This document shows, one piece after another, positions 4,765 to 62,340 of a stretch of DNA of 64,000 bases. The stretch spans positions 64,001 to 128,000 of IMG/VR virus record IMGVR_UViG_3300029288_000075; one strand, written 5' to 3'. How positions within the stretch are numbered: position 1 is the first letter of the stretch; every line of letters starts with the position of its first letter. The notes under the pieces are model-generated. The model had not been told where the DNA came from. It saw only the letters and a program-made list of their open reading frames with translations, and did no database searches. The position numbers were made by a program, and so were the translations under genes. Origin of the DNA: a virus (lineage: Duplodnaviria; Caudoviricetes).

Positions 4765-6039
4765 ATGCAAACTTCCCCACTGCAGCTCTTCCTCCAACAG
4801 CGCGAAGCGAGACCGGTGGCAGGGCAGCATCTGGAACATCTAGGTAAGGAAGCTGCCACAAACTGGGTGCTTGGGAAATGCGCTTCTCTACATGAGGCGG
4901 CGGTGAACGTACTTCGTGCGGAGCAGCTGTCTCCCGAGCAGGTACGTAGGGTAGTTGAATTTACCAACCAGAACGCGTATCTGCAGGAGTTCCGTAAGGA
5001 AGGCGACCACAAAGTGGTGCATTTCGATTGTGGACCCGCCGACCCTGCTCAAGTACTGCAAGATTTGAATGATGGTGGTGGGGGTTCGTTGTACGATCAG
5101 GGCAACTTGCACCACCGAGCAATCCCGACACGTACGTCTGCACGAGGAGCATCCATGGACAAGACCGCATCCGCCCAAGACCAAGGGATCCCTGGCCTGC
5201 CCAAATTGACCAGGCTGCCGGGCCTACCCAAGGCAGCGTCTGTACCGGAAGAGGAGCTGTGGGGGTTGTTTCAGACCGATGCGTCTGGCGCGCTTCCCTA
5301 CGCCGAACCGCGGCGTCCGTTGATGGACGTGCGCAGTAAACTTGCCGGAGTGCAGGGAGAGTTAGAGGACGCAGTCAATCAGCTCGAGCTGGACTATCAG
5401 GAGGCTTCGAGCCAGTTGTACCATCAGGTGAAGCAGGCGGCGTTGACGGGGGAGAGTTTGGGTTCGATTGTAGCTGCTTGGGCAACTGTCTCGGAAGCTC
5501 CGGTGTTCACGAAGGCGGCGTTTGCCATGCTCACTCCGCTGTTGCGTCATGACGGCGTATTCCCTTCGTTGGACAGCATTGGGGCGTCTTTGGAGAAGCA
5601 GGCTTCAGGCGTGGTGAATGGTGAGCATCCGCTGGTGCGTGCTTACGCAGATTTCGTGAATACGTTGGGCAAGTTGGCTGCAGCACGGGGGTTGCACCAG
5701 GAGTACCTCGAAGGAGTTGCCCTCACAGAGGAGCTGTTGAAAAACGCGGCAGGGGGTGTGGTAGGTGCCGTGAAAGCAACGGGGAAGGGGATTGACGCGA
5801 TCTCCGGTCCTTTGGCACACGCGCTGGTGGGCCCTGCTGACGCAAAGAAAGTGGCGCCGTCGATAGCCCGCGGGTTGAAGCTCACGGCGGGTGGTGCTGC
5901 GGTACTTGGCACCAACGCGGCCGTGCAGAATGTCACTGACCGCCCAGGCGTGCAGCGCGTGCTGCAGGCAGCTAAGTCCACCGTGCCAGGTACCATGGAG
6001 TACCAAAATCGTCGCTATCGCAACATGACGGGGATGTAA
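4765..6039 (+). CDS. Head morphogenesis/internal protein with multiple K-x-A motifs
   Basis: LSPEQVRRVVEFTNQNAYL domain; DKTAS, VKQAA, EKQAS, GKLAA, LKNAA; lies upstream of the protease. Confidence 0.7.
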   Translation: MQTSPLQLFLQQREARPVAGQHLEHLGKEAATNWVLGKCASLHEAAVNVLRAEQLSPEQVRRVVEFTNQNAYLQEFRKEGDHKVVHFDCGPADPAQVLQDLNDGGGGSLYDQGNLHHRAIPTRTSARGASMDKTASAQDQGIPGLPKLTRLPGLPKAASVPEEELWGLFQTDASGALPYAEPRRPLMDVRSKLAGVQGELEDAVNQLELDYQEASSQLYHQVKQAALTGESLGSIVAAWATVSEAPVFTKAAFAMLTPLLRHDGVFPSLDSIGASLEKQASGVVNGEHPLVRAYADFVNTLGKLAAARGLHQEYLEGVALTEELLKNAAGGVVGAVKATGKGIDAISGPLAHALVGPADAKKVAPSIARGLKLTAGGAAVLGTNAAVQNVTDRPGVQRVLQAAKSTVPGTMEYQNRRYRNMTGM

Positions 6040-6044
6040 TTACC

Positions 6045-6635
6045 ATGAACCCAGCAGAAGAGTTCTTGACGGAGAAGAAGGCGTTCGGTCTTGGGGCACT
6101 CACGGGAGCAGCCCGCTCTACGGGTAAAGCAATGTCCCCAGCGGCCAAAGCGTTTGGTTCTGCTGCTGCAGTGGGGGCTGGGGCTGCGGCATTTGCTGGG
6201 CTGGCGGGTGGTGCAAGCAAGCTGTACGCAGCGGCCACCAAGACTCGAGACTTCCGCGCCATGCTGGATGCGAATCCAGACTTGCTACAGCATCAGAAAG
6301 CAGACCCGGCAGGGTTCAATCGCATGTACTCTTCGTTGCGCACATTGGCACCGGAGTTTGCTGCGGAACCGCTGGTAGCTGGCTATTACCTACGTCAAGG
6401 TATGGAGGGCCTCATGGAGGGTCGTGGCGGCGTGTCTGTGCAGGCCATGAATGCAAAGCGTCCTGTGCAGACCGGGCCTATGACGGATGCGGCCTTGCAG
6501 GGGTACATGAGGGGCATGGGTTCGAAGAAGGAAGAGGGTCCTCGACCGCAGTTGGTATCGCAGACGCGACATCGATTCGACCCGGAAACTCAGGGGTGGC
6601 AGCAAACTGAGACCACCGAGAATCGGTACGGATGA
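6045..6635 (+). CDS. Putative internal head protein (K-x-A leader, Gly/Ala hydrophobic segment)
   Basis: MNPAEEFLTEKKAF leader; AAAVGAGAAAFAGLAGG. Confidence 0.7.
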   Translation: MNPAEEFLTEKKAFGLGALTGAARSTGKAMSPAAKAFGSAAAVGAGAAAFAGLAGGASKLYAAATKTRDFRAMLDANPDLLQHQKADPAGFNRMYSSLRTLAPEFAAEPLVAGYYLRQGMEGLMEGRGGVSVQAMNAKRPVQTGPMTDAALQGYMRGMGSKKEEGPRPQLVSQTRHRFDPETQGWQQTETTENRYG

Positions 6636-8320
6636 TCAAGGTCAGTCTCTTCCAGGGCAGCGAGGAGTACGGACCCGCGGCTGTGCCGCTGTTTGGGCCA
6701 TCGGATAGCTACTTCGAGAAGACGGCTTCCGCTACGCTTTTGCCAGAAGTAGCTGACTACATCGCGCACTTGAAGCCGAGGAATGACTCGCAGTACGTAC
6801 TCGTCAACGCCATGGGCGCCGGTGAGTATTACGGCTCCAACGTGAACGGGGATCGCTTTGCAGAGGCTGCTTTGGTACACGCCCCTGCCCGGTGGACAGG
6901 CAAGCCTGTTCACGACATGACGGTAGGAAAGTCTTGGGCCTACGGTTACCCTACGTTCTACGGGGCACATGTTTTTCCGCATCACAAGAACAAGGATCCC
7001 AACCGGGCGCTAGGGACTGTCGAACTGGCGGCGTGGAATCCGCATATGAAGCGTGTCGAGCTCGTCACTAGGCTCGAACACAAGCTGTGCAAGGGATTTG
7101 GCGGTGAAGGGATTTGGGACAAGCTGGTAGCAGGTGAATTTCCTGATGTGAGCATGGGTACCAAGGTGCCCTTCGATACGTGCTCCATTACCTTGGATCG
7201 CGAGCTCTATCAGAAGGCGTGGGATACGTACAATCCCAGCCTGCATCGTAGTCCTGGGGATGCCATTCTTCAGTTCCATAAGAAACTGAAGGCCAAGAAC
7301 GGCGTAGGCATCCGCGGGTTGAGTATCACGCGCGTCGACTACTCAGAGTATGCGCGCCACATGATGAACCAGATCTTGCCAGATGGACGCAAGGTTTGGG
7401 TGGACAATGATTTCCCGAAGTTCTTCGACATTTCGTTTGTGTTCATGGGCGCAGACAAGATTGCCAAGGCCATGCTGAAGATTGCGGCCGGTGGCAAGCG
7501 TGTGTACTCCATCGGCTCGGCAGAGTTGGCAGACAAGCTTGCTGAGTACGACATGATTTGGATTCCAGAGCCTGCGGTCACGGAAAAGACTGCCGGCGTT
7601 TCGAGTATTGAGGACCGCCTGTTGCGGATGGCCGAGCGACGAGGAGAGACGCTCGAGCAGTCGGGAAAGAGCACGGCGAAATCCGCGATGACCAAGGAGG
7701 TCGTTCCCAACCAGCTGGCAGGGAAGGCTGTCCCCCTGCTCACGAGCCAAGAGCGAGATTTGCCGGACAAAGTGCTGGACGAGCTGGCTACTGCTGGGTT
7801 TGGGCCTGCACTTTCTACGGCAACAGGGCTAGGAATTGTGCTCAAGCCTCGCGAGTTTCAGCGTATTACCCTGATTTGCCTGGGTAATCGTGCGGCGGCA
7901 GACGGATTGGACGCGTTAGATCAGGTGTTTCCTCTGTCGTCGGAGAGGGAAGAGCTGCCTCTTGGCCTGGGTGACTTCAGTCCAGCGTTGTCCAGTATCC
8001 TGGCTCCGTTCATGGATTCTAGGTCTTCTCTTGGCCCGCACATCGAGCGGCGCGTAGTCCTTGTGGCAGGTACAACACCTTCGGGTGGTAAAAAGACAGC
8101 TTCCCATTCCTCTGAACTGCTCCGTAAGATTGGGGCTGCCTATAATGGCTATCGAGAAGGCCTCATGCAGTTTGTACCCCATGCGCAAGACTTGATGGAA
8201 GCGACGTCTACTCAAGACGGTCTGCGAAAGCTTGCCGCACTAGCTGCAGAGGAACTATTCACCCCACTGAGCTACCATTACTTGAGCACCGCGTATTTGG
8301 ACGAGGTGACACGTGGGTAG
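6632..8320 (+). CDS. Prohead (capsid maturation) protease
   Basis: GSNVNGDRF, HVFPHHKNKD (His), DVSMG (Ser), FFDISFVFMGAD motifs of HK97/herpes-fold phage proteases; upstream of scaffold and capsid genes. Confidence 0.8.
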   Translation: MIKVSLFQGSEEYGPAAVPLFGPSDSYFEKTASATLLPEVADYIAHLKPRNDSQYVLVNAMGAGEYYGSNVNGDRFAEAALVHAPARWTGKPVHDMTVGKSWAYGYPTFYGAHVFPHHKNKDPNRALGTVELAAWNPHMKRVELVTRLEHKLCKGFGGEGIWDKLVAGEFPDVSMGTKVPFDTCSITLDRELYQKAWDTYNPSLHRSPGDAILQFHKKLKAKNGVGIRGLSITRVDYSEYARHMMNQILPDGRKVWVDNDFPKFFDISFVFMGADKIAKAMLKIAAGGKRVYSIGSAELADKLAEYDMIWIPEPAVTEKTAGVSSIEDRLLRMAERRGETLEQSGKSTAKSAMTKEVVPNQLAGKAVPLLTSQERDLPDKVLDELATAGFGPALSTATGLGIVLKPREFQRITLICLGNRAAADGLDALDQVFPLSSEREELPLGLGDFSPALSSILAPFMDSRSSLGPHIERRVVLVAGTTPSGGKKTASHSSELLRKIGAAYNGYREGLMQFVPHAQDLMEATSTQDGLRKLAALAAEELFTPLSYHYLSTAYLDEVTRG

Positions 8321-8324
8321 CTTG

Positions 8325-8334
8325 ATGGTACAAC
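8325..8334 (+). promoter_or_regulatory. ATGGTACAAC extended -10-like promoter
   Basis: Same 10-mer in intergenic positions at 44025 and 55532. Confidence 0.55.
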
Positions 8335-8413
8335 AAGAAGGCGAAAGCGTGCAGAGGGCGTTACCCCTTGGCGACCACGCAACTCAACACCCCTGTGTGA
8401 TTAGGAGTAAACC

Positions 8414-9163
8414 ATGTCCGGAATCAACGCTCTACTGAACGATGCATACGCAAAGACCGCTGCCACCGCTGAAGATCTCGAGAAGACTGCCCAGCTCGAG
8501 TACTTTGGTGCTCTCTGTGAACGGGAGAGCATCGACGTAGCCCGTCTGGATGACGAGCAAGCCATGAACCTCTTCAAGACTGCGATGGAGATGAAGGCTG
8601 CAGAAGAAGAGGCCGCCAAGGAAGAGAAGAAGGAAGAGGGCAAGGAGGGTAAGAAGGCCCCTCCATTCGGTGGTCCTGCGCATGAAGCCAAGGAAACTCC
8701 CAAAGAGGAGAAGAAGGAAGAGAAGGCCAAGGAAGCCGCCGTGCAAGAGTGGCAGTCCAAGGTTGCCGAGGCGCGATCCGCGTATGAGGCGACTGTGGCC
8801 GGCCGTCTTATGGCAGATGCGTTCATCGACCAGATGCAGAAGCGCGCTGCGGCGGGTGAGGCGGGCGCTGCTGGAGATGCGGCGCGTGCGGTCATCGAGC
8901 AGGCAAAGATTGCATCGGCTGCCCCTGCTCGGTCGGATACTCCTTCGATCGATTTCGTTGCGGGCAACCGCGCCATCGACCTTCTCAAGGAGGCCGGCTA
9001 CGACGCGGACGAGGTAGTGAGCAAGGTCAACGCCATCTACACGCTGGGGCTGCCCGCCAGTACCAAGCTTGCTTCTGTGCCAGACTTCAACAGCGCTGTA
9101 GAGATGCGTGCCCTCGAGATTTGTGAACTTGCTGGCGCGTCGGTGGATTGGAGCAAGGTCTAG
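8414..9163 (+). CDS. Scaffold-like protein
   Basis: AGGAG SD; E/K-rich helical; AKTAA, EKTAQ, QKRAA, AKIAS, TKLAS. Confidence 0.65.
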   Translation: MSGINALLNDAYAKTAATAEDLEKTAQLEYFGALCERESIDVARLDDEQAMNLFKTAMEMKAAEEEAAKEEKKEEGKEGKKAPPFGGPAHEAKETPKEEKKEEKAKEAAVQEWQSKVAEARSAYEATVAGRLMADAFIDQMQKRAAAGEAGAAGDAARAVIEQAKIASAAPARSDTPSIDFVAGNRAIDLLKEAGYDADEVVSKVNAIYTLGLPASTKLASVPDFNSAVEMRALEICELAGASVDWSKV

Positions 9164-9211
9164 TACTGCCCCGGTGGTCTTGGTGTTCTGAGAGTTGGAG
9201 CTGTTCGTAGC

Positions 9212-10639
9212 ATGAGGAAAGTCGCAGACGCAACATCCGTACCCTTCGCTGATTCAGCGATGGACACTGCTGCGTCAGCTCCACTCCCAGGGTTGGCGGT
9301 AGGGAACAAGCCGGCGCCCGGTCAGGTCGGTCCCAAGGGCATCTCTCCGCGCACCAACTACTCTCGCGTGAACACCGGATCTCCACAACCAGTGGATGCC
9401 GGGGTGACTTCCCAAAAGGGGGCTGCCCCGGATTCACAGAACTTTCTCCCTCCGAAGATTGCTAGTGAGGTTTACATGTCGTCTACTGCGCGTAAGACCA
9501 TTCAAGAGATGATCAAGGCCGCCGCTGAAGGTACCTTGAATCAGACTTCGGTAGCGGTGGAGGCGGAGCGTCAGCAAGGAGCACCGGTGGCGAAAGTTGC
9601 CTCGGCGGAACTCCCCATGGACGTGCCGTCTGTTCCCACTGACTACGTCCACAAGCTTGCGAACGCCTGCGATTTCATGCTGGGTGACTGGCGTGAAAAG
9701 GCAGCGGCGGAGCTCGGCCCTGGTACGGGCCCCAACGCGCTTGCGGTATCGCAGGCAACTTCCTCGAACAATGAGTTCACCTCTGGGAATCAGGGGCAGG
9801 CAACTCCGGCACACGTGCCGCCAAAGAACCCAGGCACGCAGAAGCCCTCTGAGACTCCTGCCGGCGCCTCAAACGCCCTGGAGGACAACGCGGCAATGAA
9901 GCACAAGGAGCAGCCCGTGAAGTTGGGCGGCGCTCTGCGTCCTGCCTCGTTGGCACTGACAGGAACCAAGTCGGCAGGAGTGCGCGATGCTGCTATCACT
10001 GCGCTTGGTACCGCCAAGGGGCTAGGTAAGGACTTGGCCGCGGCTCATCCGCAGGCCACAAAGGCGCTCAAAGGCGTCGGTACCGCTGCCGGTGGTGCTG
10101 CTGGCGGTGCAGCAGCAATCCATCTCCTTGGCAAAGGCAAGAAGAAGGAAGCTTCTGCTGTCCATGCGTGGCTGCTAGACTGGGATGCACGCATGTCCAA
10201 GAAGGCAGAGGACGCCATCAACCCCGCGCAGATTTCGGCAGGAGCCGCGGTTCCTCCGGAAACCAGCGCTGCGGGTGAAGCTGGTGGAGCTCCTGCCGGT
10301 GGACAGCCTCAGGGCCCCACGAGTTTGGTGGGTTCGAACGAATCGGCCATCAACTACACCAAGGGTACGGCGAAGGCACCGGTGAAGGGGCAGCTTGCCA
10401 GCTACCTTACTGAGCCAGCGCTCTCTGCCGCGCATGACAGCACGTTGGACAAGGCGTTCGATCATACCGGTCAGGCCGGTGTGAAGATCTCTTCTCTGCG
10501 GGCAGCGGCGGCACGGGCAGTTCTGAGTAAACTGTCTGCCGCGGCGTGTCCCACGGGCGAGACCAAGAAGAAGACGTCCGCGGGCATGAGCAACTTCACC
10601 GCCCCCCCAGTCTCCGGCGCCGCCGCCGGTCCTATGTAA
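9212..10639 (+). CDS. Low-complexity scaffold/internal head protein, about 10 K-x-A/S motifs; probable internal start at 9476
   Basis: A/G/P-rich; RKVAD, PKIAS, AKVAS, HKLAN, EKAAA, TKSAG, KKEAS, SKKAE, KKTSA; GAGG-N5-ATG at 9476 in frame. Confidence 0.65.
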   Translation: MRKVADATSVPFADSAMDTAASAPLPGLAVGNKPAPGQVGPKGISPRTNYSRVNTGSPQPVDAGVTSQKGAAPDSQNFLPPKIASEVYMSSTARKTIQEMIKAAAEGTLNQTSVAVEAERQQGAPVAKVASAELPMDVPSVPTDYVHKLANACDFMLGDWREKAAAELGPGTGPNALAVSQATSSNNEFTSGNQGQATPAHVPPKNPGTQKPSETPAGASNALEDNAAMKHKEQPVKLGGALRPASLALTGTKSAGVRDAAITALGTAKGLGKDLAAAHPQATKALKGVGTAAGGAAGGAAAIHLLGKGKKKEASAVHAWLLDWDARMSKKAEDAINPAQISAGAAVPPETSAAGEAGGAPAGGQPQGPTSLVGSNESAINYTKGTAKAPVKGQLASYLTEPALSAAHDSTLDKAFDHTGQAGVKISSLRAAAARAVLSKLSAAACPTGETKKKTSAGMSNFTAPPVSGAAAGPM

Positions 10640-10656
10640 TCGGAGGAACCTGTTCG

Positions 10657-11603: not shown

Positions 11604-12722
11604 ATGTCCGTTCCGGCGAGTGTACTGAACGAGCTCTTTGCTTCGAAACTCAGCACGAGTGAAGGCAAGGAAAAGATCGCCGAGTATGGTGGTAGTTACA
11701 TTCGAGACCGCCTCCGCGAGGTGAGCTTTGCCCGCAAAGTCATCCCGCCGGAGCAGGTCACGCGTGCCGACTGCCAACGCTCGGTGAACCACGACACCTT
11801 GGTCAAGATTGTCGACGTGGAGCCCAAGAGCCGCGCCATGGCAATTTCGTTCCGAGGGCAACCGACAGCCCGCTTCATTCGAGGCGAAAAGGCCGAGGTC
11901 GCATTCTTCACCATCAGTTCCGAGATGTTCCAGAAGACGGAGCAGGAGCTGTTGGCCTACGAGATGCCCATCACCAAGATCATCGAAGAGAACTCGGTGA
12001 AGGACATCCAGGAAATCGAGGACCGCGAGTTCACGATCCACGTTGAAGCCGCCGTGCAAGCGTTGCAGACGGAAGCCAATGGTGGGACTCCCACTGCGCT
12101 GCACGTCGGCACCATCGGTACTACCGTGGAGTTCTCGGTGCGCAAGGGTGAGCTTGCTCGCAACGCCGCAGCGAACACGGCGGAGGTTCTCCCGGTCAGC
12201 CGCGTGGACATCGTCGCCCTGTTCAAGATGTTGGACGGGAATCGTCTGCGGTCCGAGCGGTTGCTCATGACCGAGATGGACTGGGACGACATCTTGTCTT
12301 GGACGGTGGAAGACTTCGGTGACCGTATTCAGTCCGAAACGACTGTCGACGGCTACAAGTACAACACCATTCTTGGTCGTGCGTACATTCGCACCATCAA
12401 GACGGACATCCTGCGCCCCGGCAACATCTACACCTTCGCCAAGCCGGAGTTCTTCGGGAAGTTCTACGTCCTGAACAACACCAAGTTCTACATCGACAAG
12501 ATCGCCAACACGATCACCTTCCAGGCGTGGGAAGACATCGGTATGTCGGTCATCAACATCGCGGCGGTCCGCAAGCTCGAGCTCTACTCGGGCGATGCAA
12601 ACCCCACGACGAACGCAGACGGCCTCCTCGACAACTTCATCCCGAGGTCCGAGGACGCGCTGGGTGCGGTCAACAACCGTGTGGATGCGGGCCTCAAGTT
12701 CCCGCAGGTTTCGCAGTACTAG
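11604..12722 (+). CDS. Major capsid protein (HK97-like fold)
   Basis: 372 aa; AAGGAG SD; strongly biased codons; IRDRLREVSFARKVIPP...IQEIEDREF pattern; followed by a terminator. Confidence 0.8.
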   Translation: MSVPASVLNELFASKLSTSEGKEKIAEYGGSYIRDRLREVSFARKVIPPEQVTRADCQRSVNHDTLVKIVDVEPKSRAMAISFRGQPTARFIRGEKAEVAFFTISSEMFQKTEQELLAYEMPITKIIEENSVKDIQEIEDREFTIHVEAAVQALQTEANGGTPTALHVGTIGTTVEFSVRKGELARNAAANTAEVLPVSRVDIVALFKMLDGNRLRSERLLMTEMDWDDILSWTVEDFGDRIQSETTVDGYKYNTILGRAYIRTIKTDILRPGNIYTFAKPEFFGKFYVLNNTKFYIDKIANTITFQAWEDIGMSVINIAAVRKLELYSGDANPTTNADGLLDNFIPRSEDALGAVNNRVDAGLKFPQVSQY

Positions 12723-14588: not shown

Positions 14589-15059
14589 ATGATGAAGATC
14601 GAAAAGTACGGCACCCTGGAAGAAGCCAACTTGAAGATTCAGGGCGGCATCACGGGGGGCGTTTCTACCAGCCAGGCCTTCGTGGGACTTGTTGGTGAAA
14701 CTATCACGTTTGCTACCCCCGCCGGGTCTTGTACTTTTACGCAGCCTAGCGGTGTGGCGGGGGTACTTACGTTCAAGGACGTCAAGTCGCAGTTGGAGAC
14801 TGCTATTACGAACTTGCTGGTGAGCTCAGTGGACAACAAGCTCTGCTTCGAGCATGCGCTGGATGGTTCCTACGTGTCCCTAGCTGCAGCGACGCCGGTT
14901 GAACCGGCGCGTGCTGTACTTGGTCTTGGGCAAGGTGAGGCAATTACGGGTCGTTGCTTGAATGGCCCTAGCTCGACCGACCTTCCACGCTTTGTGGAGT
15001 TCGTGACAGAGGCGTTGTTCATTTACGTGGCTGTTGAACTACCGAATGCAGGTGCCTAA
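14589..15059 (+). CDS. Hypothetical structural protein
   Basis: GGAG SD; beta-rich. Confidence 0.6.
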   Translation: MMKIEKYGTLEEANLKIQGGITGGVSTSQAFVGLVGETITFATPAGSCTFTQPSGVAGVLTFKDVKSQLETAITNLLVSSVDNKLCFEHALDGSYVSLAAATPVEPARAVLGLGQGEAITGRCLNGPSSTDLPRFVEFVTEALFIYVAVELPNAGA

Positions 15060-18580: not shown

Positions 18581-19482
18581 TGCCTGTCTCCATCGAGCTC
18601 TACAGGCTGCGTGTCACCTCACTGGATGTGGATTTCCATGAGGTGACATGGGCTGTTGAGGCCACCTCGGTGGACGTGCTGGACTACACCTTTCAGGTGC
18701 TCCGGTCTGAGGCTGAAGAGGGTCCGTACGAAGAGCTCACCCCCCAGATCGAGGACACGTACCACTTCGTCGACAACGTTGCCCAGGTGATGCACCGTTG
18801 GCGCACCTACCATTACAAGATTCGGGTGATGGAGAAGGTGTCTGGCGACTACAAGGACTTTGGTCCTGTGGCGCAAGAGCCTGAAGCTGACTTGGTAGCG
18901 CTCGAGCTACGTCGTCATCTGCGCGTGCTGTTTCGTGAATTCGCCGGTCGACGTTGTATTGTCCTTCCTGTGCGAACATTCGGGCAACGCTGCCCTGATT
19001 GCTGGAGCGAGCGGTTGAAGAAGACCACCAAGAGCGGTTGTCTCACCTGCTTTTGTACTGGGTTCGTCCGTGGGTACCTGCATCCCATTGAGACATGGAT
19101 GCAGGTGGATCCAAGTTCGAAATCGCAGCAACATCTCAATACGGGGGAGACCCAGCAGGACAACACCACAATGCGTATGGGGAACTACCCCAGCATCAAG
19201 CCGTTGGATCTTGTGGTGGAGCCAGAGAACATTCGCTGGCGAGTAGTAGGGCAGACCCAGACAGAGCATGCGCGTGCAGCCGTACATCAGGAAGTTCAAC
19301 TTCATCGAATCCCCGAGAAGGATATCGAGTACTCGATTCCGGTGCGCTATGCGGATGCGCTACCGAACTTGTGGGTTACTCCGTTGAGGAACTACACCAA
19401 TCCGCAAAACTTGCAGAGTGCAGAAATGCTCGAGACGCCGAGCGTTTACGCCTTGTATCCTTTCCTGAGGAGGCCGCCGTGA
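18580..19482 (+). CDS. Putative head-closure/neck protein (FN3-like N-terminus, Cys cluster)
   Basis: RCPDCW...CLTCFCTGFVRGY; DLVVEPENIRWRV; position in the neck module. Confidence 0.55.
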   Translation: MPVSIELYRLRVTSLDVDFHEVTWAVEATSVDVLDYTFQVLRSEAEEGPYEELTPQIEDTYHFVDNVAQVMHRWRTYHYKIRVMEKVSGDYKDFGPVAQEPEADLVALELRRHLRVLFREFAGRRCIVLPVRTFGQRCPDCWSERLKKTTKSGCLTCFCTGFVRGYLHPIETWMQVDPSSKSQQHLNTGETQQDNTTMRMGNYPSIKPLDLVVEPENIRWRVVGQTQTEHARAAVHQEVQLHRIPEKDIEYSIPVRYADALPNLWVTPLRNYTNPQNLQSAEMLETPSVYALYPFLRRPP

Positions 19483-45192: not shown

Positions 45193-45233
45193 CGCTCCTC
45201 CTCGTAAGCAGACCCCACGTCCGCTTCAAGGTA

Positions 45234-45262: not shown

Positions 45263-45267
45263 GGCAG

Positions 45268-45546: not shown

Positions 45547-45681
45547 GGGTCACCTTGCGGTTGGGGTTTGATTGAATTGCCTACGTGTAGTGTGGTCACT
45601 TCTTTCCGAAGTTCAAGAAAATTCAGCGTGCGTGCTTGTAGTGGGTTCAACTCTTGTTGGCAACCTCGTGACGAACTGGGG

Positions 45682-55547: not shown

Positions 55548-55784
55548 ATGCTGAACGCTCAAGTTCTATCCAGTTTTGGTGCAGAGGTATCGAAGGTAGC
55601 TGCCAAGAAAGACGTGGGGCAGCTCCTGGCTAGCTTGGCTTCAAGGCAGGGGCATAGGCCTTCGCTTTTCCCTAGCATTCAACAAGTGAAGAATGTGGCG
55701 ACCCGAGATCGTGGTCGAGCTGCCGAAATTGCCTCCAACATCCGCTCTACGTTGAAGAACACTGCCGCGGTGCAGGCGGCTTAG
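55548..55784 (+). CDS. Small K-x-A leader protein
   Basis: VLSSFGAEVSKVAA. Confidence 0.6.
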   Translation: MLNAQVLSSFGAEVSKVAAKKDVGQLLASLASRQGHRPSLFPSIQQVKNVATRDRGRAAEIASNIRSTLKNTAAVQAA

Positions 55785-55786
55785 CC

Positions 55787-57205
55787 ATGGCTGTCCCGAC
55801 TCTTGTGACGCCGTTGCTTACCCTACTGGTCAAGGTGTCCGCTGCACGTTCTCGCATGACCGTGTCGCAGACGCGGTCAGGCAGACGCCCGATGCGTGTG
55901 GAGACCATGCTCAAGAAGGACAACGAGGGTACCCTGTATCGCAATTGGAAGGATCACATACCCGGCGGATTGGCAGACAAGAAGAAGCCCACTGATTTCG
56001 ATCCTGCTGCGTTGGCCAAAGGTACCAAGGTGGAGTTCGAGCACACCGACAGGCTGCTTACTGCGTCTGAGATTGCCATGGACCACCTTGTCGAGGACCC
56101 TCGGTACTACGACAAACTCGAGAAGATGGAAGAGGGTGGGGCTAAGCATGCTGGTTTGTTGGATGTGTTGAAGGCTCCTATTCCTGGGACCAAGGACTGG
56201 TTCGTGAACACCGGTAAAGCTGGACTGCAGGGAGCTCATAGACTCACGGGCACCATGCCTGCGCGTCCCGGGGCATTGCGAACTGCAGCGAATTCGGTGG
56301 CTCCTGCAGCACGGGCGTCAGGGGCTCTGCCTGTTGCACGTGGCGGGGTGTACGGGATCTCGGAAGCGGAGCTGCAACGTCTAGGCTTTGGGGATTTGAT
56401 GAAGTCGGGGTCTGCTAAAAAGGTCGAAGACCTGAAGAAGGCGGCCTATCGTCTGCAAGGTCACACGGAAGTACAGGGACTTCCAATCGCCATCGAAAAT
56501 AGAAAGGGCTCTGTGCGGTCTGGCGAGGACCCAGACGGCACCCCGTGGCGCACGAAGTACAAGTACCCTTACGGTTACCTCGTGGGTACCAAGGGAAATG
56601 ACGACGAAGAGATTGATGTCTACGTAGGTCCCAACAAGGCAGCCCCCAACGCGTACGTAGTACATCAGCACAAGGTCACTGGCAAAGGCTACGATGAAGA
56701 CAAGGTGATGTTGGGTTTCGAGTCGGAAGCAGCTGCTAGGGCGGCGTACCTCGAGCACTACAACAAAGTTGGACCAAAGCTTCTTGGTCCCATCACGGTC
56801 ATTGCCATGAAGCGGCTGATAGAGATGCTGGCGCAGAAGAAGGAGTACAAGAAGCTGGCCACAGCCGACATATCCAACAATACGCTGATGACGGACCGAG
56901 CGGGGCCAACTACACGTAGCAAGCCTGGTGATGTACCAGACGCTATGGATGTGGCATTCTCCAAACTCAAGCAAGCATGGGATGGCGTTGGCTCTAGTGG
57001 AGGTCCTACCGGAAACAGAATGGCCATGCTTGACATGGATGAGAAGCCCGATCGAACAAAGCCGGGTGATGTACCATCACGGGATGGAACCAGTCCCGGC
57101 GCCGCACGCATCGAGCGGCATGAGGCAGGGCCGGATTTCATGACCACGTTACCTACGAACGGCGCCATGGCTAGTTCTCAGACCGGAGCAACTACGAGGC
57201 TTTGA
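55787..57205 (+). CDS. K-x-A polyprotein with DUF5661-like and inorganic-pyrophosphatase-like (InPase) domains
   Basis: GTKVEFEHT..EIAMDHLVEDPRYYDKL; IENRKGSVRSG..YGYLVGTKGNDDEEIDVYVG..YDEDKVMLGF. Confidence 0.75.
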   Translation: MAVPTLVTPLLTLLVKVSAARSRMTVSQTRSGRRPMRVETMLKKDNEGTLYRNWKDHIPGGLADKKKPTDFDPAALAKGTKVEFEHTDRLLTASEIAMDHLVEDPRYYDKLEKMEEGGAKHAGLLDVLKAPIPGTKDWFVNTGKAGLQGAHRLTGTMPARPGALRTAANSVAPAARASGALPVARGGVYGISEAELQRLGFGDLMKSGSAKKVEDLKKAAYRLQGHTEVQGLPIAIENRKGSVRSGEDPDGTPWRTKYKYPYGYLVGTKGNDDEEIDVYVGPNKAAPNAYVVHQHKVTGKGYDEDKVMLGFESEAAARAAYLEHYNKVGPKLLGPITVIAMKRLIEMLAQKKEYKKLATADISNNTLMTDRAGPTTRSKPGDVPDAMDVAFSKLKQAWDGVGSSGGPTGNRMAMLDMDEKPDRTKPGDVPSRDGTSPGAARIERHEAGPDFMTTLPTNGAMASSQTGATTRL

Positions 57206-58068
57206 TGCAATACTCAGAAGTCCAGTGGGCATCGTTCAGCGAGCAGCTAAGCAAGGAGGCTTTTTCGTTAGCTGGGATGGGGTCTACCTTGCGCGGTGCG
57301 CTGGGTTCCTCTATGGGAAAGGCCAAGGCCCCGACGGGGTGGATTCTGCCGAGTAGGAAGGGGTTGGCTCTGGGTTCTGCTGCGAAGCCCGGTGCAAGCA
57401 TGTTTCCTGCCCCTGGTGGTGTGGCCGCAACCCCAGGTGTATTTCAGTCTTTTGGCAAATCACTGCAGGAAGGCGGCAAGCTGATGCAGCGAGATTCGAC
57501 CAAGAGCCTACTGGCAGGTAAGTCTGTGTCGGCTGGTCCCGCCGCACGCATGGGGGGTGAGGTGGCGCAGTCGGTAGGGCACCACTACGCACACAAGGGT
57601 ACCTTAGGAAACCTCGTCAACCCACTAGGCGGTGCCCTGGGTGGGATGGCCGAGGGGATCACTCGCGGGGCTGGTAAAGAGTTGACCCGTGGAGCTGGTG
57701 CCCTAGGCGCGCATGGGCCGGCGGCTTTGCAGGGTACAGCGCGCACCATGGGTAGATTTGGCACGGGCATGCAACGAGCAGCCAAGGGCGTTGGTATGGC
57801 CGGTGAGGTAGCGGGGCTAGCCGGACTTGGTACGGCCGTACACGCTCCGCTGTCTTTGGCTGGTGCCGTCGGCGGGAAGATTGTGGGCGGGGCATCGCAA
57901 GCTCTCCCCATACTGACCGACGCACTGCACAGCGCCGGCGACGTAGTGGCGCATGGCGCGCACGACGTAGTGGGCAACGCGGCGCATTCAGCAGCAGGAA
58001 AAGTGCAGAGTGCTGCCAAGCGGTCATTGCCCTCGATGAGTCCACAACTTGTTCATGGAGTACCCTGA
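57205..58068 (+). CDS. K-x-A leader, Gly/Ala-rich protein
   Basis: WASFSEQLSKEAF; Gly zippers. Confidence 0.65.
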   Translation: MQYSEVQWASFSEQLSKEAFSLAGMGSTLRGALGSSMGKAKAPTGWILPSRKGLALGSAAKPGASMFPAPGGVAATPGVFQSFGKSLQEGGKLMQRDSTKSLLAGKSVSAGPAARMGGEVAQSVGHHYAHKGTLGNLVNPLGGALGGMAEGITRGAGKELTRGAGALGAHGPAALQGTARTMGRFGTGMQRAAKGVGMAGEVAGLAGLGTAVHAPLSLAGAVGGKIVGGASQALPILTDALHSAGDVVAHGAHDVVGNAAHSAAGKVQSAAKRSLPSMSPQLVHGVP

Positions 58069-58544
58069 TGTCCATCACCTACGACGAAGCTCTGCACGAT
58101 TGTCTTGTCGATGCACTAGGGAAGCTGGCAGGTCAATGTGGCTTGAAGGTCGCCGAGGTTTCTTCAGAAAGAGCCCGTCGAGCCATGGATCGTCTGAGTT
58201 CCATGGAAGACACCAAGCCCACGGTGGGTCAGGTGGCGCGTTACGCAGGTATTGGCGGTGGCGGTGGCGCGGCTGTCAAGGCCATCGGCAATGTGATTGA
58301 GGGGTACAAGAAACCCACGGTTCCTGGGGTCAAAGGACACCTGTTGGCCTTGGGTAGGGCAGCCGTGAAGGGGGACGTGAACAAGACGGTAGGCTCCAAG
58401 ATCCGCTCCGTAGCATCTACCGGGATCACTGGGGCTCTGGGGGCAGGGGTAATCCCACTTGCTCGCAGCGGTAGTGACCGTGCAGCAGAGCGGAAGGTTC
58501 TCAAGAAGTACATTCAACAGACTCCAGCGGTGCCCAATGCCTGA
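58068..58544 (+). CDS. K-x-A leader, Gly-rich protein
   Basis: CLVDALGKLAG, LKVAE. Confidence 0.6.
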   Translation: MSITYDEALHDCLVDALGKLAGQCGLKVAEVSSERARRAMDRLSSMEDTKPTVGQVARYAGIGGGGGAAVKAIGNVIEGYKKPTVPGVKGHLLALGRAAVKGDVNKTVGSKIRSVASTGITGALGAGVIPLARSGSDRAAERKVLKKYIQQTPAVPNA

Positions 58545-59718
58545 GTGGATGCACAATCGAGCCGAGCACATACTTGCCAAGAATCCTTCGATGCCCAAGT
58601 CGGAGGCCTTTGCCATTGCAACGCAGCAGAGCCACGCTACAGGGCATTCTCCAAAGGGGTTTGGTACAGCCGAGGGAAGAGCGAAAGCCAAGGCCAAGTT
58701 CGATACTCCCAAGGGTGACGAGCATCGGGCGAATCCAGGTAACTTGACGAGCTCCAAGATGGCCGCGGCGGCGTTTACGCATGTAGTGTCTGTGCGTACC
58801 ACGCGTGATGGTGCCGGCGCTTTACGTGACATCCTGCACAACATCCAGCAGAATGGTGCCCCCGGGCACTCCTTTGGGATAGTAACGACGGATAAGCCCG
58901 CGCGCCACATTGGAAGTTGGGATGGGGATGGCGCCGATACAATGGCTCTTCCTACCATGCACAAGATGGCGTCCGTAGTAGGCTGGTTGTTGGAGTCTAC
59001 TGGGTTGCTAGGGAAACTTGGCTTTGCCAGCTCCTCCTACGGGGGTCAGCCGGCACAAAATGGTCCTGGAATGCGTGGACGTAGCCAGATTCCACCCTTC
59101 GTGGCTCCTCCCATTGAGGTGAAGGCAGCCGGGCTGCGGCGCGTGGGAGAACTGGTTACAGGTAGTCGAGCGAACAAGCTCTACGACGCTGCGCTTCGTC
59201 ATGCCGATTCTGCTCGAGGAGGTAGTGCAGCAAGCGCAAAGGCCGTTCGAAAACTGCGTGGGCTTGCCCACATGGAAGAGGGAAACGTGGGGCGTATGCA
59301 GGGTGCCTTGGCTACAGGTGCTGGCATTGGGGCTGTAGCGGATCTCACTGGTTTTGCGGAGAGACGTGCCAAAGCTAAGGAGGCAGGCGTGGGTGTGGGC
59401 GCCGGGATGTCTGCTTCGCAGTACTCTGGGCCGCTCTCATATGGTCCATTCAAGCAAGAGAGTGCGATTCCTGCATTCATTTCTCCGGGCATGACCAAGA
59501 CGGACCCGCGGTTGGAAGCGCCCGCCTACGCCACCGGTGGCAACAAGACTGCTGGTGCGGCAACGGGGGCCATGACGGCGGCCGGTCGTCTTCGGGCAAG
59601 TCAACGACTCACCGCACCAAAGCTTACTGGGTTTTCTGGCCCTAGCATCGCGGACATTGCTAAGCCAAAGGGCTTTGGAAAGCCGCTGTCGGGGGCACTG
59701 AAAGGTACTCTCGGATGA
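58537..59718 (+). CDS. K-x-A polyprotein
   Basis: SKMAA, HKMAS, GKLGF, VKAAG, AKEAG, NKTAG; N-terminal KSEAFAIATQQ module. Confidence 0.65.
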   Translation: MPEWMHNRAEHILAKNPSMPKSEAFAIATQQSHATGHSPKGFGTAEGRAKAKAKFDTPKGDEHRANPGNLTSSKMAAAAFTHVVSVRTTRDGAGALRDILHNIQQNGAPGHSFGIVTTDKPARHIGSWDGDGADTMALPTMHKMASVVGWLLESTGLLGKLGFASSSYGGQPAQNGPGMRGRSQIPPFVAPPIEVKAAGLRRVGELVTGSRANKLYDAALRHADSARGGSAASAKAVRKLRGLAHMEEGNVGRMQGALATGAGIGAVADLTGFAERRAKAKEAGVGVGAGMSASQYSGPLSYGPFKQESAIPAFISPGMTKTDPRLEAPAYATGGNKTAGAATGAMTAAGRLRASQRLTAPKLTGFSGPSIADIAKPKGFGKPLSGALKGTLG

Positions 59719-60116
59719 CTCCTGCGGCTATCTCTGCATGCTGCAGGGAGCTTACCAAGGTTGCTCTGCTCGAGCGCCTGGTACGTTTGGGCGCTACCGA
59801 TATCCCTCGAACGCCTCGACTTCTCATGAAGCACAGAGACCCTAAGGCGCTGGCGGCGTTGCAGCAGGCAACTGAGACGGCGTGGGACTCAAGGGTTACC
59901 GCGCCCCTGATGCGGGCTGCTGATCGAGGGCTACGGCATCTTCCTGAAGGCAAGGCTCGCAACTTGGCCACCTCCGGTGCGCGGTTGTTGGCCGAAGATC
60001 CTGTTGGATTTACGGTCACGAATGCCATACCAATACCGGGAGCTTCTCCTGCTTGGATCGCGGCCAAAAGGGGACTTGAACGCGTGATTGACAAGACTGC
60101 GCCTCTGCAAGTCTGA
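59715..60116 (+). CDS. K-x-A leader protein
   Basis: ISACCRELTKVAL. Confidence 0.6.
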   Translation: MTPAAISACCRELTKVALLERLVRLGATDIPRTPRLLMKHRDPKALAALQQATETAWDSRVTAPLMRAADRGLRHLPEGKARNLATSGARLLAEDPVGFTVTNAIPIPGASPAWIAAKRGLERVIDKTAPLQV

Positions 60117-60168
60117 CATGTAGCAGGCATAAGGACTCTGTATCAGAGATCCTACCTGTTGGAGGAAC

Positions 60169-60756
60169 ATGCGCGTATGCCCTGTTTTACTAGGCTATTT
60201 GAGTGGCCTGAGAAAGCACATTGACTTTGATTCTCCTCTGAACGAATTCGGTTTGCCCACCCAGGAGGAACTGGAAGAACGGTGCAAAGCCCAACTGGTG
60301 TCAGAGGCTACTTCACACTTGCGCGGATTCTACTGCGTACAGGAGACGCTTGCTAGGCTGGCACTGCGCTGGCCAGCTGCGGTTCTCATGCCAGAGATGC
60401 CCAAGGCGAGCATGTCGGCGTACTACTTGATGCAGGTCGTATCTTGGGTACGAGAGGTAGAGGATCTTCTTGCCGGCAATGCGTTGGAGACTGCGGTCAT
60501 GCAACGTACGCTACCTCTGCAGGAGACCGGAGGAGGGCAAGTACATCAGCAAGATGCTGAGAGGGCGTCTAGGCTTTGTTCGTACCTTGTGTTGGAGGCC
60601 ATGCCCCTACGCAGGTCCCTCAAGGACAGACGCACAAGTTTGCGGCGGGTTGGTCACTACTATGCCCGCGTGCTATTGGATGTTGGGACTAGCGTTGCCG
60701 CTGCTCATAGAGAGGCGTTGGCATTGAGCCAGAACGTGGAGGAGAAGTATGCCTGA
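60169..60756 (+). CDS. Hypothetical protein
   Basis: GGAGGAAC SD; upstream AGGCATAAG promoter variant. Confidence 0.55.
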   Translation: MRVCPVLLGYLSGLRKHIDFDSPLNEFGLPTQEELEERCKAQLVSEATSHLRGFYCVQETLARLALRWPAAVLMPEMPKASMSAYYLMQVVSWVREVEDLLAGNALETAVMQRTLPLQETGGGQVHQQDAERASRLCSYLVLEAMPLRRSLKDRRTSLRRVGHYYARVLLDVGTSVAAAHREALALSQNVEEKYA

Positions 60757-61108
60757 AGCTAGCGCGGAAGAGCTTCCCAGCTTGTTGCTTGAGGTGCGTG
60801 AGTCGAGCACAGCCAAGAACAAGCAAGGTATGTTCGTAGGGGCTATTCAGCTGGTCTGCGTCACCCGTGACGAAGGGATCTTTGATGCCGCGGTGCAGTA
60901 CTTGGACGGCTACAAGATGTATGGCTCTACATCGGAGGAGGTGATACAGGCGTTGACGGCCGAGTTGCATGACGTGGAGGAGACTCAGGCTTCTCTGCTA
61001 GTTCGTAATGGCCTGCTCGAGCGCCGTATACGGGAAAAAGACGCCAGAATAGCTCAGCTCGAGCGTCTTCTGGGCGCCTTGGGCACGGACCTGGGCTTTG
61101 ACGACTGA
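60749..61108 (+). CDS. Coiled-coil hypothetical protein
   Basis: GGAG SD. Confidence 0.55.
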   Translation: MPEASAEELPSLLLEVRESSTAKNKQGMFVGAIQLVCVTRDEGIFDAAVQYLDGYKMYGSTSEEVIQALTAELHDVEETQASLLVRNGLLERRIREKDARIAQLERLLGALGTDLGFDD

Positions 61109-61132
61109 GCGTTGTACACTTGTCGGAGGCAA

Positions 61133-61588
61133 ATGGCACATTCAAGTACAGACGATTACCCCGTTCGCATCACTTCTCCCGACTACAAGACGGCTGACCG
61201 CAGTGAGTTGGAGGCGTGGCTTAGAAAGGAAGCTGCAGCTGTAGCTGGAGGGGTCAAGCCTGAGGACAACGAGGATTCTACAACCGCTCAATACAGCGAG
61301 TTGTACGAGCCTCCAGCTGGCGCAAAGAAGCTCGTAGAGACTGCCCTCCATACGACGTACCCTAATGGGGCAGCCTCGCAGGCCACGCAGCGTGAGGTAC
61401 TGGACGGCGCATTTGCCAGTACACCAGCTACAGCCAAGGCAGAGCAAGCGCTACTTAGCGCAAATTTCGAACATGCGCGCACTGGAGACTTCGAAACGCA
61501 AGCGCCATTGCTACGTGGCGAGCGCGCGAAGGGTAAGGTAGCGCACTTTCTGTCAGACCGTACGCACTTGCTGGGGCTTGGGAAGTGA
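61133..61588 (+). CDS. Hypothetical protein
   Basis: TACACT -10, GGAGG SD; coupled to the sigma gene. Confidence 0.6.
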   Translation: MAHSSTDDYPVRITSPDYKTADRSELEAWLRKEAAAVAGGVKPEDNEDSTTAQYSELYEPPAGAKKLVETALHTTYPNGAASQATQREVLDGAFASTPATAKAEQALLSANFEHARTGDFETQAPLLRGERAKGKVAHFLSDRTHLLGLGK

Positions 61589-62340
61589 ATGCAGCTGACG
61601 AATTCCTAGAGACCAAGCAGAAGACCGCCGCGGCTCGAGCCGCGCAGGATCTTCATCTTTGGCATGCGTGGGATCAAGGAGGAAGGACACCTCAGCTGCT
61701 GGAGCCACTGCTGTCCAGGTACGACTCGCTCATGAACCGTAGGGCGAATGACTGGCGTGCCCCTACGGTGGCCCCGGCGGCATTCAAAGCTGAGCTGCAT
61801 AAGCAGTTCATTCAAGCAGCACACTCGTACGATCCTGAGCGTGGTGTGGCCTTCAACACACACGTGCAGTCTCGTTTGAAGAAAGCTCAGCGGTTCAACG
61901 CCAAGCACCAAAACGTGGGGTACATACCTGAGGACTTGTCCAGACACGTAGGTCCCATGGAGCGTGCCAAGAACGAGCTTACGGACCAGTTCGGACGTCC
62001 CCCCACTACGGTGGAACTTGCGAATCACATGGGCTTGCCGCAGCGTAAGCTCACTGCGCTAATTACTCAGCTACGAAGGGATGTGCCATCGTCGCATTTC
62101 GAGTCAGATCCCACGACGCTATCCACGGGTAGGGAAGCAGACGTGGTTCGTTTGATGAAGCGCAGACCGGAGGAGTACCTGACACCCGAGGAAGTACGGG
62201 TATTTTCTCACATCTACGGCATCAACGGTGCTCGGAAGATTACGGATACGACGTCGTTGGCCACCCAACTTGGGTTGAGTCAACCAAAGGTCTCACGCTT
62301 GAAGACCTCAATCGCGAAGAAGGTTCAGCAGTACCTCTGA
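61585..62340 (+). CDS. RNA polymerase sigma factor, sigma70 family (FliA/WhiG/SigF-like)
   Basis: Region 2 YDPERGVAFNTHV, region 3 FGRPPTTVELANHMGL, region 4 LTPEE...LATQLGLSQPKVSRLK. Confidence 0.85.
   Translation: MNAADEFLETKQKTAAARAAQDLHLWHAWDQGGRTPQLLEPLLSRYDSLMNRRANDWRAPTVAPAAFKAELHKQFIQAAHSYDPERGVAFNTHVQSRLKKAQRFNAKHQNVGYIPEDLSRHVGPMERAKNELTDQFGRPPTTVELANHMGLPQRKLTALITQLRRDVPSSHFESDPTTLSTGREADVVRLMKRRPEEYLTPEEVRVFSHIYGINGARKITDTTSLATQLGLSQPKVSRLKTSIAKKVQQYL

Follow-up and report, generated by a model that had tools for sequence, protein, structure and literature searches.

A conserved Lys-x-Ala motif in phage head-assembly proteins most probably marks the cutting sites of a neighboring herpesvirus- and T4-like head protease

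The stretch of DNA analyzed here (64,000 nucleotides, called the window below) comprises bases 64001–128000 of a 187,857-bp phage genome, which is related to two cultured phages, Arash (Salmonella) and D69 (Vibrio), and to numerous uncultured phages of ~190 kb. The head genes, named by their first nucleotide, run in the order terminase (1041–2987), 4765, 6045, 6632, 8414, 9212, and capsid (11604), and the order is identical in six relatives, Arash, and D69. Nucleotide searches of phage records with the head genes gave no match, and Pfam and PHROG searches with ~35 window proteins found little beyond the terminase, the capsid protein, the InPase/DUF5661 protein, sigma region 3, and a weak kinase match. 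Relatives of a presumed portal of 709 residues, encoded upstream of the window, were undetected in phage records and PHROGs; the 4765 protein was considered as a portal and rejected, as no test gave it that identity. The features of the head region are listed below, with counts of lysine and alanine separated by one residue (K-x-A, or K.A) given against expectation.

4765–6039, + strand: 424-aa core/scaffold-like protein (p420); 11 K.A versus 2.9 expected
6045–6635, + strand: 196-aa protein (p193) with the leader MNPAEEFLTE-KKA-F, followed by a Gly/Ala-rich hydrophobic stretch; K11–A13 at nt 6075–6083
6632–8320, + strand: 562-aa protease-scaffold fusion, from homologue searches and alignments A1 and A2; 8 K.A versus 3.7 expected
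6719–6727, + strand: K30-T-A32, within F-E-K-x-A-S/A just ahead of the protease domain; candidate self-activation cut
6743–7507, + strand: protease domain, residues 38–292, from AlphaFold, fold comparison, and invariant residues
7586–7594, + strand: K319-T-A321, after the protease domain; candidate release site
8228–8236, + strand: K533-L-A535, within L-x-K-x-A-A/S/G, 27 residues before the C-terminus; candidate tail-release site
8414–9163, + strand: 249-aa acidic/Lys-rich scaffold-like protein (scafA); 11 K.A versus 4.9 expected
9212–10639, + strand: 475-aa Ala/Pro-rich head protein (scafB); 11 K.A versus 7.0 expected
11604–12722, + strand: major capsid protein (PHROG 2522, major head protein)

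The K-x-A motif is real, and the proteins that build the head conserve it both in this phage and in distant relatives. When sequences were shuffled within 15-residue blocks, which preserves local composition, the five adjacent head genes (4765–10639) contained 42 K.A pairs compared to 21.2 after shuffling (z 5.3; 0 of 2000 shuffles as high) and 27 K.A pairs followed by Ala, Ser, or Gly compared to 7.4 (z 7.7). K.A in these genes ranked first among 400 gapped dipeptides in each of seven genomes (this phage and six relatives), and it also ranked first in the head proteins of Arash (37 versus 15.6, z 5.4) and of D69 (42 versus 15.9, z 6.6), two lineages at only ~30% identity. Moreover, 55% of K.A pairs in head proteins kept their position in homologues versus 17.5% of other pairs (z 6.4, rank 1 of 74), and conserved motif positions were found in three deeply diverged lineages. 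The sites have the logo L/F/M-E-K-T/I/V-A-S/A-A. Numbered as for a cut after the Ala, flanking positions that played no role in site selection carry information, with Ser enriched 4.4-fold at P1', Thr 3.5-fold at P2, and Leu 2.7-fold at P5.

Across the whole window, K.A again ranked first among the 400 gapped dipeptides (150 versus 111.7 expected, 1.34-fold, z 3.6), but the excess was concentrated in the five head genes and was zero in the genome outside the window. An earlier note on this DNA had described K-x-A(/S/G) as shared by more than 15 proteins across the window. All eleven of the examples it cited were found in the genes named, but the motif is strongly marked in only five proteins, with some ten more as candidates; as a window-wide feature it does not hold. 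The third position was also drawn too broadly, because K.S (51 versus 59.4) and K.G (58 versus 81.2) were not enriched across the window; Ala, Ser, and Gly are instead enriched at the residue following the Ala. Nor was the motif depleted in the terminase and the large presumed tail proteins, as the note's impression of rarity there would have it, for both have about the chance number.

A two-residue motif such as K.A occurs by chance about once per 240 residues, and the pattern might therefore be a composition or chance effect of Lys/Ala-rich, helix-prone proteins. The small window-wide excess is consistent with this explanation, as are the background-like flanks of most sites outside the head genes and the 31765 protein, a Lys/Ala-rich compositional false positive that scores high purely from KKAAKK low complexity. 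The modest N-terminal bias is open to the same reading: K.A falls within residues 5–32 in 18 of the 71 window proteins (9.8 expected, p 0.012), an excess of ~8 proteins in which start codons were partly the choice of the earlier reader, and no excess occurs at later positions or outside the structural region. Against it stand the composition-keeping shuffles in seven genomes, the first rank in two lineages of ~30% identity, conservation of position at three to four times background, and the informative flanks. Composition or chance is refuted for the five head genes and is very improbable as an account of the motif, but in the rest of the window it correctly accounts for most isolated K.A sites.

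In individual head proteins, the sites are spaced and conserved in ways that depend on the protein. In p420, for which Pfam and PHROG matches were absent, a conserved N-terminal domain is followed by about nine segments of 23–36 residues, each closing with K-x-A; 9–10 sites are kept in 5–7 of 7 orthologues amid variable sequence, and a homologue lies upstream of the protease in Vibrio phage D69. Several scafA sites are kept in all 7 orthologues, and scafB sites are kept in 5–7 of 7, with segments inserted in relatives carrying their own K-x-A. The p193 leader site is kept in 6 of 7 orthologues. In the major capsid protein, K24-I-A26 (nt 11673–11681; flank score 5.4) closes a 26-residue N-terminal leader; 7 of 7 orthologues have K-x-A there, differing in the residue between Lys and Ala, and the capsid proteins of Arash and D69 have K-E-A-G at the equivalent place.

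The 6632 protein has more than 1200 homologues by word search and 2725 clusters (50% identity) by profile search. Its full-length fold was poorly predicted from a shallow alignment (pLDDT 50), and the model of the N-domain alone, made with 46 diverse sequences, was usable (pLDDT 84.8). In VIA-align comparisons, this model matched T4 gp21 (5jbl) with Z 9.3 and an rmsd of 2.8 Å over 132 of 165 residues, the VZV protease (1vzv) with Z 8.6, and the HCMV and KSHV proteases with Z 6.2; unrelated MCE-domain rows scored lower (Z below 6). Foldseek ranked herpes proteases and gp21 at the top, with E-values of only 0.02–0.1, and its list includes the PRV, HSV-2, KSHV, EBV, and HCMV proteases. His118 (nt 6983–6985), Ser174 (nt 7151–7153, within a PDVSMG motif), and Asp182, eight residues past the Ser, are invariant in the 46 sequences, and inteins lie beside the Ser174 loop in many homologues. 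Proteases of this kind use a His and a Ser together with a third residue, Asp or His; fold, spacing, and sequence invariance suggest that His118 and Ser174 may be equivalent to the catalytic pair. The gene also lies where such proteases are encoded, between terminase/portal and major capsid protein and beside scaffold genes. As modeled, then, the domain shares the fold of the assemblin-type prohead serine proteases (herpes S21, T4 gp21 S77, HK97 S78, and P2 gpO S80), in agreement with the earlier note, which had singled out the VSMG serine. Pfam searches with the 46 members (E up to 0.1) matched no family, including Peptidase_S77, S78, S80, and S21, PHROG and PDB sequence searches with protein and profile gave no match for the domain, and a language-model search listed S78/S77/S80 clusters at only 0.89–0.90. 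The lack of a Pfam, PHROG, or PDB profile match makes this a new sequence family of the assemblin fold.

Three conserved K-x-A sites punctuate the 6632 protein. Ahead of the protease domain, all 46 sequences have K30 and at least 90% have A32, with Thr, Val, or Ile between them (flank score 7.6). After the domain, K319 and A321 form a conserved island (at least 90% in A1 as well as in A2) within a variable linker rich in indels. Near the C-terminus, an alignment of 22 sequences shows no change at L531 or K533 and at least 90% conservation of A535, and a conserved tail, FTPLS..YL..AF.DE, comes next.

Beyond the head genes, K-x-A marks a set of candidate internal or cargo proteins, listed below; for the 55548–62340 block, orthologues came from two related contigs only.

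15059–16744, + strand: 561-aa candidate internal protein; K-x-A-G ahead of a conserved Gly-rich C-terminal domain
16754–18580, + strand: 608-aa candidate internal protein with the leader MLNEYLLRAYRQTQT-KEA-S; leader site in 3 of 4 orthologues
55548–55784, + strand: 78-aa protein with the leader ...SFGAEVS-KVA-A; kept in 2 of 3 genomes, K-I-G in the third
55787–57205, + strand: 472-aa multi-domain protein, arranged DUF5661, KHA, linker, KKAA, InPase, KLA, tail (Pfam PF18905, PF18823)
57205–58068, + strand: 287-aa Gly-rich protein with the leader ...SFSEQLS-KEA-F; leader site in 3 of 3 genomes
58068–58544, + strand: 158-aa protein with the leader ...LVDALG-KLA-G; kept in 2 of 3 genomes
58534–59718, + strand: 394-aa protein in which K-x-A-[A/S/G] recurs internally five to six times; most sites in 2–3 of 3 genomes
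59715–60116, + strand: 133-aa protein with the leader ...CCRELT-KVA-L; kept in 2 of 2 genomes, poor flank score (–2.0)
61585–62340, + strand: sigma factor (Pfam Sigma70_r3) with the leader NAADEFLETKQ-KTA-A

By number, K.A shows no significant excess in several of these proteins (7 versus 4.4 in 15059, 10 versus 7.1 in 16754, 6 versus 4.4 in 55787; 6 versus 3.9 in 58534 taken alone); the idea that long members repeat the motif 5–10 times holds for the head proteins with an excess and lacks significance for 15059, 16754, and 55787. The K-x-A-G of 15059 is conserved in position, and in one relative (L002) the gene is split exactly there, the second ORF beginning M-K-S-A-G. In the 55787 protein, K-x-A at three domain borders is kept in 2–3 of 3 genomes, and the InPase domain (residues 218–345, nt 56438–56821) is a stand-alone ORF in other phages; the motif lies between modules, as had been proposed, flanking the protease domain and others such as InPase. 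K-x-A closes conserved leaders of 11–30 residues in 6045, 6632, 8414, 11604, 16754, 57205, 61585, and others, so that by sequence these proteins have the short N-terminal leader ending in a protease motif that characterizes T4-type capsid targeting. The sigma-factor leader and its K-x-A (K13–A15, nt 61621–61629; flank score 4.2) are kept in 3 of 3 genomes. Flank scoring makes most K.A sites beyond the five head genes look like background, but N-terminal sites outside the training families scored 0.29 compared to –2.71 for background K.A (Mann-Whitney p 2e-4). Several of the leaders cited by the earlier note have weak flank scores.

Prohead proteases of the assemblin fold cut after Glu (T4 and the phiKZ group) or after Ala (herpesviruses), and herpes assemblins cut between Ala and Ser. 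A P3-x-P1 motif with Ser at P1' is the register of this family, which supports K-x-A as a cut motif. Another enzyme, from the host or the phage, might nevertheless cut it, or the cut might follow the Lys, as in HK97-type maturation; the ties between motif and 6632 are adjacency, presence of the motif in the enzyme itself, and that usual register. We consider this quite unlikely, as motif and protease family occur together in three distant lineages with differing hosts, including Salmonella and Vibrio, and a cut after Lys would leave the invariant Ala two residues on and the small residue next to it needless.

Enrichment and conservation by themselves show constraint rather than proteolysis, and sites every ~25–30 residues in helical Lys/Glu/Ala-rich proteins resemble a repeated contact. 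K-x-A could accordingly be an uncut binding or assembly motif for the inner capsid surface, scaffold oligomerization, or DNA, with the protease having some other specificity. What makes this rather unlikely is where and how the motif is kept. It brackets the protease domain, closes leaders, and marks the borders of unrelated enzyme domains, positions that fit a processing signal better than a binding repeat. At conserved sites, Lys is essentially never changed to Arg and Ala is never replaced, whereas the middle residue varies, and the P3-x-P1 pattern with a small P1' residue matches known proteases of the assemblin fold (PMC10052503).

Our preferred reading, which we hold to be probable, is that 6632 is a prohead maturation protease of the assemblin/T4 gp21 fold with a C-terminal scaffold-like region and that it recognizes K-x-A, likely cutting after the Ala. 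We infer cleavage at K-x-A, the scissile bond, and the targeting of leaders to the prohead. The enzyme would recognize Lys at P3 and Ala at P1 and cut (L/F/M)-(E)-K-(T/I/V/L)-A↓(S/A/G)-A. Within the assembled prohead, cuts at A32, A321, and A535 would let the enzyme release and activate itself. It would chop the 4765, 8414, and 9212 core/scaffold proteins to peptides of 20–35 residues able to exit the shell, and remove the 26-residue leader of the major capsid protein. It would also trim N-terminal leaders or separate domains in 6045, 15059, 16754, 55548–59715, the InPase protein, and the sigma factor. Neither a protease nor processing is mentioned in the virion proteomics paper on Arash, whose supplement holds no peptide-level data, and no K-X-A prohead motif came up in a search of the literature.

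This scheme is best read as a new variation on T4, phiKZ, and herpes maturation. First, T4 gp21 breaks gp22, gp67, and gp68 down into small peptides, takes short N-terminal peptides off internal proteins, and cuts away the N-terminal peptide by which its own active site is blocked (PMC9958956); leaders of 10–20 residues are removed from T4 internal proteins and an N-terminal piece from its capsid protein (PMC9958956, PMC5694885). The fold and the P3-x-P1 motif are alike, and N-terminal self-cleavage, reduction of core proteins to peptides, and leader removal are proposed here, but the T4 motif is (L/I)-x-E, and our protease is fused to a C-terminal region of ~270 residues and lacks a Peptidase_S77 profile match. 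Second, phiKZ gp175 and SPN3US gp245 have numerous substrates among the head and ejection proteins, which are processed at a motif of three residues with Ser favored at P1', gp245 cutting A-X-E↓, and in these systems long propeptides are cut at several sites and the protease sheds a C-terminal propeptide (PMC10052503). A further likeness is that Arash virions contain RNA polymerase subunits (PMC10585845). Unlike K-x-A, their motif ends in Glu (A/S/G-x-E), and the present clade is unrelated to them in sequence; its genomes measure ~190 kb, and its capsid protein, of 372 aa, has no long propeptide. Third, the herpesvirus assemblin-scaffold precursor (UL26-type) shares the fold and the arrangement of an N-terminal protease and a C-terminal scaffold-like region in one chain, with one conserved site directly behind the protease domain and a second ~27 residues short of the C-terminus. 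The phage protein conserves K319-x-A321 and L531-x-K533-x-A535 at these places, where it would be cut similarly, and P1 Ala with P1' Ser fits the herpes rule. The phage system differs in that P3 is Lys instead of hydrophobic, substrates are far more numerous, and an extra conserved site precedes the protease domain; it is also a phage and not a herpesvirus.

Finally, the near-identical leader MNPAEEFL..K.A common to the unrelated 6045 protein and sigma factor raises the possibility, which we put forward only tentatively, that an N-terminal helix plus K-x-A serves as a portable loading tag that packs a variable set of enzymes and regulators into the capsid, where the protease releases them as separate products for injection. 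The cargo would then include the sigma factor, the pyrophosphatase-like domain, and Gly-rich membrane-active proteins. Short conserved leaders in the capsid protein, the sigma factor, and several small proteins fit the earlier proposal of helix-plus-K-x-A leaders. The fused RNA polymerase of the present genome, encoded upstream, and the Arash sigma factor gp10, which is present in virions, both lack an N-terminal K-x-A leader, and the tag is therefore no general rule for packaged enzymes. That a helix and K-x-A might suffice to load any ORF into the prohead is conjecture.

In the two cultured relatives, Arash and D69, papers and records label these genes only structural or hypothetical. If true, a Lys-x-Ala rule would represent a new prohead-protease specificity, in a phage family that is very large and for the most part uncultured. 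The mature forms of capsid, scaffold, and cargo proteins would then be predictable from sequence, and the rule would hint at packaged regulators such as the sigma factor. Should the portable tag also prove true, sequence alone would reveal what thousands of uncultured phages carry as cargo.

The K-x-A motif (Lys, any residue, Ala) and the protease encoded at 6632-8320 (+) are both real, and the best explanation for the motif, which we consider probable, is that it is the predicted cleavage signal of this prohead protease. The window spans positions 64001-128000 of one contig of 187,857 bp. Judged by its terminase and major capsid protein matches, the genome is that of a phage; its G+C content is 55-60%, and most genes lie on the + strand.

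1041-2987, terminase large subunit (PHROG 675, Pfam GpA_ATPase)
11604-12722, major capsid protein (PHROG 2522)

A nucleotide search of phage records with the head genes gave no match, and the sole named relatives in protein searches were Salmonella phage Arash and Vibrio phages D69, D181, and D148, with 27-33% identity in the protease and capsid protein. Metagenomic homologues of the 6632 protein number over 1200, many of them from 186-203 kb contigs, and a profile search with this protein yielded 2725 clusters at 50% identity. A literature search for a K-x-A prohead motif found no report; in the Arash paper, gp220-226 appear among the virion proteins, with mention of neither protease nor processing.

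First, K-x-A exceeds chance. With each protein's own composition controlled and all 400 gapped dipeptides compared, K-x-A ranked first in the window (150 versus 111.7 expected; 1.34-fold, z 3.6). Every example quoted in the earlier note is present in the sequence, but its broader form, K-x-A(/S/G), holds only for Ala, as K-x-S and K-x-G fell below expectation. The same composition-controlled count gave no K-x-A excess in the genome outside the window. Per-protein excess was confined to four adjoining genes, apart from the high-scoring 31765 protein.

K-x-A sites, observed versus expected
4765-6039, 11 versus 2.9
6632-8320, 8 versus 3.7
8414-9163, 11 versus 4.9
9212-10639, 11 versus 7.0

The 31765 protein (31765-32565, 266 residues) contains a Lys/Ala low-complexity stretch of the KKAAKKTVKKAAAKK type and resembles histone H1 or AlgP; we rejected it as a carrier of the head motif, its 14 matches being compositional and unrelated. 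Counts in the terminase and the large downstream proteins were about as expected, contrary to the proposal that the motif is rarer in the terminase. The proposed enrichment in head proteins persisted against shuffles, within 15-residue blocks that preserve local composition, of the five head genes lying between terminase and capsid protein (4765, 6045, 6632, 8414, and 9212): 42 K-x-A versus 21.2 (z 5.3; 0 of 2000 shuffles as high), and 27 versus 7.4 (z 7.7) for K-x-A followed by A, S, or G. In syntenic head genes of six related metagenomic genomes, z was 5.1-7.5 and 6.2-9.9, respectively, with K-x-A ranked first of 400 in each. K-x-A also ranked first in two cultured, distantly related lineages, Arash gp220-225 (37 versus 15.6, z 5.4) and Vibrio phage D69 genes 0268-0274 (42 versus 15.9, z 6.6).

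Second, motif positions are conserved in homologues, as the earlier note had anticipated. When the five head proteins were aligned with six orthologues, 55% of window K-x-A pairs were kept (both residues retained in four or more orthologues) versus 17.5% of all gapped pairs (z 6.4, rank 1 of 74). Restricting the comparison to the three proteins that diverge most gave 52% versus 11.8% (z 7.1). In these alignments, the sites form islands amid variable, indel-rich sequence.

Residue preferences at 318 K-x-A sites
P5, L, F, or M (2.5-2.7-fold)
P4, E (2.6-fold)
P3, K
P2, T (3.5-fold) or I (3.1-fold)
P1, A
P1', S (4.4-fold) or A
P2', A (2.2-fold)

Herpes cleavage follows an Ala↓Ser rule, and because of the analogy with this rule and that of SPN3US, the scissile bond likely lies after Ala. 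The SPN3US rule is A-X-E↓S (PMC10052503).

Third, the 6632 protein has the fold of a prohead protease. A model of its N-terminal 315 residues, built from a 46-sequence alignment (pLDDT 84.8), best matched T4 gp21 in an exhaustive structural search (Z 9.3, rmsd 2.8 Å, 132 residues), followed by the Varicella-zoster protease (Z 8.6) and the cytomegalovirus and KSHV proteases (Z 6.2). Pseudorabies, T4 gp21, and HSV-2 proteases headed the Foldseek list, with weak E-values. His118, Ser174 (in PDVSMG), and Asp182 are invariant in the alignment. No sequence profile recognizes the domain, so that it represents a known fold in a new sequence family. Many homologues are 900-1700 residues long and contain one to three inteins, elements that often sit at active sites.

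Profile positions ~176-177, 183-190, and 231, inteins (Pfam Hint_2, Intein_splicing, LAGLIDADG_3) adjoining invariant Ser174
Window 7151-7180, loop bearing Ser174 in the 6632 protein, beside which homologues carry inteins (P0025, P0059-P0061, P0121-P0125)

The protease itself carries three conserved sites: K30-x-A32 (F-E-K-x-A-S/A), invariant and directly ahead of the fold; K319-x-A321, an island in the variable linker directly past it; and L531-x-K533-x-A535, 27 residues from the C-terminus and followed by a conserved tail. Herpes protease-scaffold precursors have release and maturation sites, which this layout parallels. It also parallels the N-terminal peptide that T4 gp21 removes by self-cleavage (PMC9958956).

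Fourth, candidate substrates carry sites at telling positions. All seven genomes have K-x-A at capsid protein residues 24-26, and the Arash and D69 capsid proteins have K-E-A-G at the matching position. Cleavage of the 4765 protein would yield a domain of ~95 residues plus about nine peptides, each 23-36 residues long, a predicted fragmentation resembling the breakdown of T4 gp22 into small peptides by gp21 (PMC9958956). The 55787-57205 protein fuses DUF5661 and InPase (PF18823) domains, the latter a stand-alone ORF of ~160 residues in other phages, and has conserved K-x-A after DUF5661 and on both sides of InPase; one relative has an additional ~150-residue insert between these domains. One relative has its 15059 homologue divided between two ORFs precisely at the K-x-A site, the second ORF beginning M-K-S-A-G. 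Several candidate substrates have Gly/Ala-rich hydrophobic stretches (glycine-zipper-like, e.g. GGLAGGALGLGLG) directly past K-x-A.

Gly/Ala-rich stretch after K-x-A
6045-6635
15059-16744 (C-terminus)
16754-18580
19479-19898
27004-27651
57205-58068

A relative's homologue faintly matches Gly-zipper_Omp. These stretches suggest that the candidates may be membrane-active internal or ejection proteins.

Conserved leaders, short N-terminal stretches ending in K-x-A, occur in the 6045, 8414, 16754, 55548, 57205, 58068, and 59715 proteins and in sigma factor 61585, whose leader closely matches that of 6045. The Arash sigma factor has no such leader. Nor does a single ORF of ~2130-2150 residues joining RNA polymerase beta and beta' domains upstream of the window (genome 52188-58583; L005:1-645, a relative's locus); a relative's fused polymerase has Rpb2_6, Rpb1_2, and Rpb1_5 domains. 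Arash has separate beta and beta' subunits, which are some of the most abundant proteins of its virion (PMC10585845). Two leader-like N-termini also lie upstream, and the motif system therefore reaches beyond the window.

Genome 44475-45641 (L032:376-1542), structural-region protein, ...AAFVDELA-KEA-A then Gly zipper
Genome 61020-63149 (L032:16921-19050), presumed portal of 709 residues, ...MPDFE-KGA-A

Several small + strand genes of this G+C-rich genome are overlapped by long ORFs on the opposite strand.

24753-25151 (-), overlapping 24780-25127 (+)
59660-60130 (-), overlapping 59715-60116 (+)

Where orthologues were available, as for 59715, the conserved member of a pair was the + strand gene with the K-x-A leader.

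A flank-only scoring matrix trained on six relatives gave means of 2.16 for sites in the five head proteins, -1.71 for all other window sites, and -2.71 for sites outside the structural region; K-x-A in the remainder of the window is thus mostly background. Hand-picked N-terminal sites averaged 0.29, above background (p 2e-4), with several scoring weakly one by one. N-terminal K-x-A was in excess (18 versus 9.8 proteins, p 0.012), and the same positional count found no excess at later positions. The proposals that more than 15 proteins across the window are marked and that any tagged ORF is loaded into the prohead are overstated or speculative. As a predicted cleavage signal, K-x-A would constitute a novel version of the head maturation scheme of T4, phiKZ, and herpesviruses, a reading that is testable in Arash and D69.
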